Assembly (NCBI RefSeq): GCF_003334405.1
Contig: NZ_QOWM01000004.1
Length of the DNA stretch: 64,000 nucleotides
From: Escherichia coli
Lineage (GTDB): Bacteria > Pseudomonadota > Gammaproteobacteria > Enterobacterales > Enterobacteriaceae
Strand: one strand, 5' to 3'
Below are positions 11,973 to 12,413 of this stretch, in pieces. Numbering within the stretch: the stretch's first letter is position 1; each line of letters begins with the position of its first letter. The notes under the pieces are model-generated. The model saw only the letters and a program-made list of their open reading frames with translations. It did not search any database and was not told where the DNA came from. The translations under genes and the position numbers were made by a program.

Positions 11973-12413
11973 AACTTTTCCTTTATTCATCGCATGGACA
12001 ATACGTACGCTTGAGATCAGGATTGTCTACTTTGAGTATAACATCCTTGTGAAATCTCCCTTTCCTCATACCGCTTGCACTATATACTGCGGGTAGGAAA
12101 GGCGCGCAGAGGGAAATATAAGATTGTTAACTATCCCCCTCTGGAAATACGACTTGTGAGCATAAGATAAATCTTAGCAAAATACAAATTAAAGATAAGG
12201 AAATTGTTACGAAAGCTATTAATTATTGTTGGTAATATAGTTTCAAGTGGTACTATAACTGGCTGTTAAATGGCATTTATAACTATTAGGTGCAGAGATA
12301 TTCGCTTAAATGGATTAGTTTCTTTGTGGAAAAGTAACTGATGTTATAATGTATGATGTTGACTATTGCACTATTCCAATAAAACCAGTCAGCTTTAAAC
12401 AAGCAGCGTCATA

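Follow-up and report, generated by a model that had tools for sequence, protein, structure and literature searches.

An unoccupied IS1 target upstream of the group 4 capsule operon in an Escherichia coli strain related to K-12

In Escherichia coli K-12, a copy of the insertion sequence (IS) IS1 lies just upstream of gfcA, the first gene of the group 4 capsule (G4C) operon gfcABCDE-etp-etk. A relative that lacks this copy raises the question of whether its empty site is original or restored, and of what the site means for the operon behind it. We address this question in a 64,000-nucleotide stretch of an E. coli genome (RefSeq assembly GCF_003334405.1, contig NZ_QOWM01000004.1), hereafter the window. 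Here the cspH-gfcA intergenic region (11973..12413, minus strand), which is the upstream regulatory region of the operon, is uninterrupted over its 441 bp. We read the site as an ancestral, never-occupied IS1 target in the regulatory region of the G4C operon, carried by a phylogroup-A-like E. coli that is near K-12 without being K-12, and we assign this reading a probability of about 0.9.

IS1 can be recognized by an element of about 768 bp with imperfect terminal inverted repeats (GGTGATGCTGCCAACTTACTGAT...), by the insA/insB' frames with their programmed frameshift, and by an 8-9-bp target duplication. None of these three features occurs in the window. A sensitive blastn comparison of IS1D with the whole 64 kb returned chance matches only, of 12-28 bp and with expectation values (E) of at least 0.04. 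The open reading frames (ORFs) located wholly inside 11973-12413 are all 20-38 amino acids long and none is insA- or insB-like, and the RefSeq annotation of an identical genome places no coding sequence in the interval. The first-pass annotation, which was made from the sequence by a model, had stated that no IS1 separates gfcA from cspH; this holds for the interval and for the remainder of the window as well. GACAATACG, the empty K-12 IS1D target, is present as a single copy at 11997-12005, 24 bp upstream of the gfcA ATG.

The occupied counterpart is found in the MG1655 genome NZ_CP010443.1. There the flanking sequence of the window aligns in two parts, overlapping by 9 bp, with a 768-bp insert between them that carries the annotation IS1D transposase. 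At the junctions, GACAATACG stands on both sides of an element bearing the IS1 terminal repeats. In K-12 IS1D (insAB-4), insAB is located on the strand opposite gfcA and is transcribed away from it. Two secondary papers likewise assign the K-12 IS1 to the ymc/gfc operon's promoter region (PMC2516531; PMC12428005). The statement that MG1655 carries an IS1 at this very position is therefore borne out by junction alignment and literature alike. The alignment that had been proposed as a check, with MG1655 and with capsule-positive strains, puts the K-12 IS1 exactly at this site and recovers 441 bp with no insertion or deletion against the enteropathogenic E. coli (EPEC) strain E2348/69. The two loci are otherwise closely alike. 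Outside IS1, a stretch of 1401 bp differs from K-12 by two single-nucleotide polymorphisms (SNPs), at 11663 and 12368, and only the latter falls within the 441-bp region. The proteins from GfcA to Etk are identical, all seven sharing their RefSeq accessions with MG1655, and the window holds the exact 9-bp target. The difference consists of the 768 bp of IS1D and the second GACAATACG, both present in K-12, whereas the site in the window is unoccupied.

How ordinary an empty site is was estimated in 5426 complete E. coli genomes with a 200-bp probe that has the K-12 site at its centre; at this length the match is split by an IS1. The probe matched 3616 genomes and was uninterrupted in 3181 of them. 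The empty site is therefore the majority and ancestral condition, an ordinary wild-type state and no peculiarity of this strain. A complementary 100-bp probe spanning the K-12 gfcA/IS1 junction matched in full in 466 genomes, mostly K-12 laboratory derivatives among the matches listed. A site of this kind is by default free of an IS, and the question of whether it exceeds chance does not apply. In a separate group of about 1800 of the 5426 genomes, the entire gfc-etp-etk operon is missing and cspH directly adjoins appA.

An empty site could also arise if IS1D left a K-12 derivative by precise excision, with a single 9-bp target restored. The overall likeness of the two genomes speaks for such an origin, since window and MG1655 share 99.97% identity over 64 kb and both carry an IS3 beside a truncated remnant of an ACP (acyl carrier protein) S-malonyltransferase gene, ymdE (~55727-56889). 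Against it stand 17 SNPs, one 1-bp indel and a 362-bp difference in repeat number, in addition to the missing IS1D. The indel concerns efeU (42807-43637, plus strand, 276 amino acids), which is intact in the window owing to an extra G at 42912; MG1655 is without that G and its efeU is annotated as frameshifted. The combination that marks the MG1655 lineage, namely IS1D at gfcA, a frameshifted efeU and otherwise identical sequence, is thus not what the window holds, and the earlier statement that the strain is not MG1655 is confirmed. Furthermore, the first 25 kb (1-25000) match several wild, non-laboratory isolates base for base, including FORC 064, ETEC1716 and NCTC9087, and over the remaining 39 kb the window stays colinear with FORC 064 and shows 13 mismatches. 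Precise IS1 excision is generally rare, and the empty site is common to 3181 genomes. Taken together, we consider the excision route very improbable. The shared IS3 was in place before this strain and K-12 diverged, unlike IS1D. An even slighter chance, practically negligible in our judgement, is that a real IS1 was collapsed or skipped during assembly. IS copies are generally troublesome to assemblers, and beyond this we found nothing in support of an artefact. Repeats usually break assemblies instead of vanishing cleanly to a single target copy, and many complete genomes that were finished independently show this same sequence.

We aligned eight sequences of the region: the window, EPEC E2348/69, O157:H7, the genome AS19-RrmA-, two further E. 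coli lineages, E. albertii and a separate species, Escherichia sp. MOD1-EC7003. Conservation is strongly graded along the interval. A block of 71 nt at the gfcA ATG (11973..12043, minus strand), which contains the Shine-Dalgarno-like AAGGAAAAG, is 97-100% conserved across Escherichia, with 97% identity in E. albertii and 100% in MOD1-EC7003. In the middle segment (12044-12150) the corresponding values fall to 79% and 82%, and in the distal segment (12151-12413) to 68% and 83%. All eight sequences agree at each of the 52 nt beside the ATG (11973-12024). It is this 71-nt block that the K-12 IS1 splits. An exact 22-mer scan over one genome per species gave no match, the E. coli representative being suspected to be without the locus, and a 20-mer at the gfcA start gave two relevant loci together with 13 chance matches.

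At the upstream edge of the block, a regular-expression scan identified TGTTATACT (12035..12043, minus strand, read 12043-12035), located 63-71 nt upstream of the ATG and kept in all eight sequences. It represents a candidate -10 element of a gfcA promoter, and the sense strand of the interval has no other extended -10-like motif. The conserved block would then hold both the promoter and the 5′ leader. In K-12, IS1D sits within this near-invariant block, with the -10-like motif on one side and the ribosome-binding region on the other; in that position it would uncouple the block from gfcA, all upstream signals then being 768 bp more distant from the gene. The window has the block directly joined to gfcA, so the operon there stands in its native transcriptional configuration; it could be expressed. 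Two complementation experiments are consistent with a promoter in the region. In EPEC, the whole interval served as the gfcA 'promoter' fragment, and in Shigella sonnei a fragment beginning 293 bp upstream of the ATG (equivalent to 12265 in the window) restored the capsule and was described as an 'operon with its own promoter'. A scan of 11900-12700, which includes the stretch between cspH and gfcA, found no intrinsic terminator on either strand.

Several observations weigh against the view that the block carries the promoter and that IS1 shuts the operon off. The -35 region associated with TGTTATACT is poor, and a strict two-hexamer scan for a sigma-70 consensus promoter returned none on either strand of 11900-12700. 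In the literature searched, no mapping of the gfcA transcription start site, of the operon promoter or of its regulators was found. The complementing S. sonnei fragment was carried by pACYC184, so read-through from the vector may have contributed. Phenotypes that depend on etk have been reported in K-12 despite the IS1 (PMC2516531). In addition, a predicted promoter facing gfcA (TGGAGA-18-TACACT) is contained wholly in the left end of IS1, and RNA polymerase is reported to bind the gfcA-insA spacer in vitro. Because of the etk-dependent phenotypes and the promoter-like site in the left end, the K-12 IS1 may rewire the expression of the operon and need not abolish it. The claim that the element silences the operon in K-12 is accordingly retained in part: the insertion itself is real, but 'silences' is too strong a word. 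Lastly, in enterohaemorrhagic E. coli (EHEC), where the region is uninterrupted too, gfcA messenger RNA (mRNA) is about 30-fold below that of EPEC and no capsule stain is visible (PMC3853201). In S. sonnei, too, expression is reported to differ between lineages. An intact upstream region is insufficient for expression, as the EHEC case indicates, and whether the operon is expressed cannot be predicted from it; the suggestion of the first-pass annotation that it may be expressed is not one that the letters allow us to read.

The EHEC data lead to a second view of the strain, in which the upstream region is intact and the operon is nevertheless silent or weak, through repression of the AT-rich DNA, a missing activator or the lack of an O-antigen substrate, so that the absence of IS1 has no phenotype. 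We regard this outcome as a serious contender, at somewhat less than even odds. The upstream region of the window differs from that of capsule-positive EPEC E2348/69 at 26 of 441 positions, 20 of them distal, and the distal 260 bp have a GC content of 27-31%. The capsule also requires a Wzy-dependent O-antigen cluster, and the rfb/wzx/wzy locus is located outside the 64-kb window. Against a silent operon, expressing strains have a proximal block identical to that of the window or nearly so, and this architecture supports expression in both S. sonnei and EPEC. A third view concerns the function of the 71-nt block. The block may be a post-transcriptional leader, acting as an RNA structure, a target of small RNAs (sRNAs) or a 28-codon ORF, with the promoter further upstream, no more than 293 bp from the ATG; the gene would be uncoupled by IS1 in this case as well. 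The sense strand of 11973-12155 folds at -55.1 kcal/mol (z = -4.1) and beats every shuffle. It comprises an inverted repeat CAGAGGG...CCCTCTG (hairpin 1, 12107..12143, minus strand), whose stem is conserved and whose loop varies in E. albertii, and a second one, CCTTTCC...GGAAAGG (hairpin 2, 12059..12102, minus strand), with an invariant outer stem and a variable interior. Covariation is essentially nil, however, with an alifold term of +0.25 and one compensatory pair among six or seven sequences; because of this we do not claim a structured RNA element in the proximal region in spite of its significant folding energy. The 28-codon upstream ORF (MRKGRFHKDVILKVDNPDLKRTYCPCDE, 12069 to 11983, minus strand) ends just 5′ of the gfcA ribosome-binding site, and four of its five differences in E. 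albertii are synonymous. On the other side, it is broken in MOD1-EC7003, where the ATG is lost and an in-frame TGA is present, it has no usable Shine-Dalgarno sequence before its ATG, and it is unannotated in all genomes looked at. An Rfam search of 11000-13500 at E <= 1 gave no match in the interval, and the ops/JUMPStart element of RfaH-dependent leaders (GGCGGTAGnnTG) was not matched there with up to one mismatch. On balance a leader without promoter function is possible but less likely than not. The nearest ops look-alike, AGCGGTATGAGG, was discarded as it is not conserved (GAGGTA in EPEC, GTGGTA in O157).

The absence of IS1 in the window is thus correctly described; it is also ordinary and already known, and the K-12 IS1 at this locus belongs to textbook-level knowledge. 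By itself the observation carries little weight beyond marking the strain as a non-K-12 relative of K-12 whose capsule export operon is natively configured. This matters for conclusions drawn from K-12, whose Etk and G4C phenotypes may not carry over to this strain. For the regulation of G4C the analysis is of modest use in two respects. It locates the K-12 IS1 site exactly, within an ultra-conserved block of 71 nt, and it identifies the intergenic region as a recurrent IS target.

The second aspect emerges from the other genomes sampled, among which at least five independent IS insertions fall within the 441-bp interval, with IS1 at three different positions. The K-12 site (11997-12005) is also occupied in A134_1EC, in the same orientation, by an IS1 that differs from IS1D by 5 bases. 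In strain 64 an IS1 in the opposite orientation uses the target GGATTGTC (12020-12027). Further upstream, two different IS1 variants in opposite orientations share the target GATAAATCT (12166-12174) in NT1N34 and E66, and the IS5-family element ISKpn26 occupies 12173-12177 in ECCTRSRTH03. These sites are empty in the window. Across 12166-12177, about 180 genomes are interrupted or deleted, and both halves are retained in 110 of them. In the genome AS19-RrmA-, presumably an E. coli B derivative, 23 bp are deleted at window positions ~12152-12174, which overlap this distal hot spot. In A134_1EC, whose genome of 4.81 Mb is not of laboratory-strain size, gfcB-gfcD are reduced to pseudogene fragments.

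Comparable patterns exist elsewhere in E. coli. IS1 and IS5 elements upstream of bglGFB and flhDC are activating and switch promoters in AT-rich regulatory DNA. IS1 at Pbgl is also mentioned in the papers that describe the K-12 insertion (PMC12428005; PMC2516531). The likeness to the cspH-gfcA region lies in AT-rich regulatory DNA in which a few preferred positions have repeatedly received elements of IS1 and of the IS5 family. The difference is that the bglGFB and flhDC insertions are activating, whereas the K-12 gfcA insertion, between the conserved block and the gene, is regarded as inactivating. One may speculate, and we hold it doubtful, that the cspH-gfcA region acts as a natural IS-driven switch of the group 4 capsule around an undescribed cis-element made of the 71-nt block and the two hairpins. 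Under such a scheme gfcA would be cut off from the element by the proximal insertions (K-12 IS1 at -24, IS1 of strain 64 at about -48). Repression might be altered by the distal insertions at 12166-12177 (two of IS1, at least one of an IS5-family element) and by the AS19-RrmA- deletion, as at bgl and flhDC.

The cspH-gfcA interval has a GC content of 35.1%, compared with 50.4% across the window. Its description as an AT-rich non-coding gap of 441 bp, from the gfcA start at 11972 to the cspH stop at 12414, matches the RefSeq annotation. All genes of the operon are located on the minus strand and are intact. gfcA (11667..11972) encodes a threonine-rich inner membrane protein of 101 amino acids and starts at 11972. 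It is followed by gfcB (10916-11560), gfcC (10173-10919), gfcD (8077-10173), gfcE (6892-8031), etp (6458-6904) and etk (4258-6438), with which the operon ends at 4258. The upstream neighbour cspH (12414..12626, minus strand, 70 amino acids) has the same orientation as gfcA. The RefSeq annotation of FORC 064 gives the same gene coordinates and no pseudogene flags. The locus shows two features of a group 4 capsule export operon, with seven co-oriented intact genes in the order gfcA-B-C-D-E-etp-etk and a native upstream region that is uninterrupted as in capsule-positive EPEC E2348/69 and S. sonnei. The first-pass annotation had likewise described a seven-gene capsule export operon behind an uninterrupted upstream region. 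In EPEC O127:H6 E2348/69, EHEC O157:H7 and S. sonnei the operon likewise lies between appA and cspH with its seven genes in this order, and the upstream region agrees in its 441-bp length and in the conserved proximal block; EPEC and O157 differ from the window by 26-27 upstream substitutions, mostly distal.

Two observations from the surroundings of the locus may be added. The 362 bp by which the window falls short of the MG1655 assembly correspond to two units of the tandem 181-bp repeats beside tRNA-Ser (58413-58854), which are annotated as RtT sRNA repeats in MG1655. Upstream of cspH lie the only two matches of the Rfam search: one to STnc220 at 13281-13361 stays below the Rfam threshold, and the cspG 5′ leader (12756-13178, plus strand) matches the cspA thermoregulator RF01766, with a score of 159 bits compared with a gathering threshold of 78.
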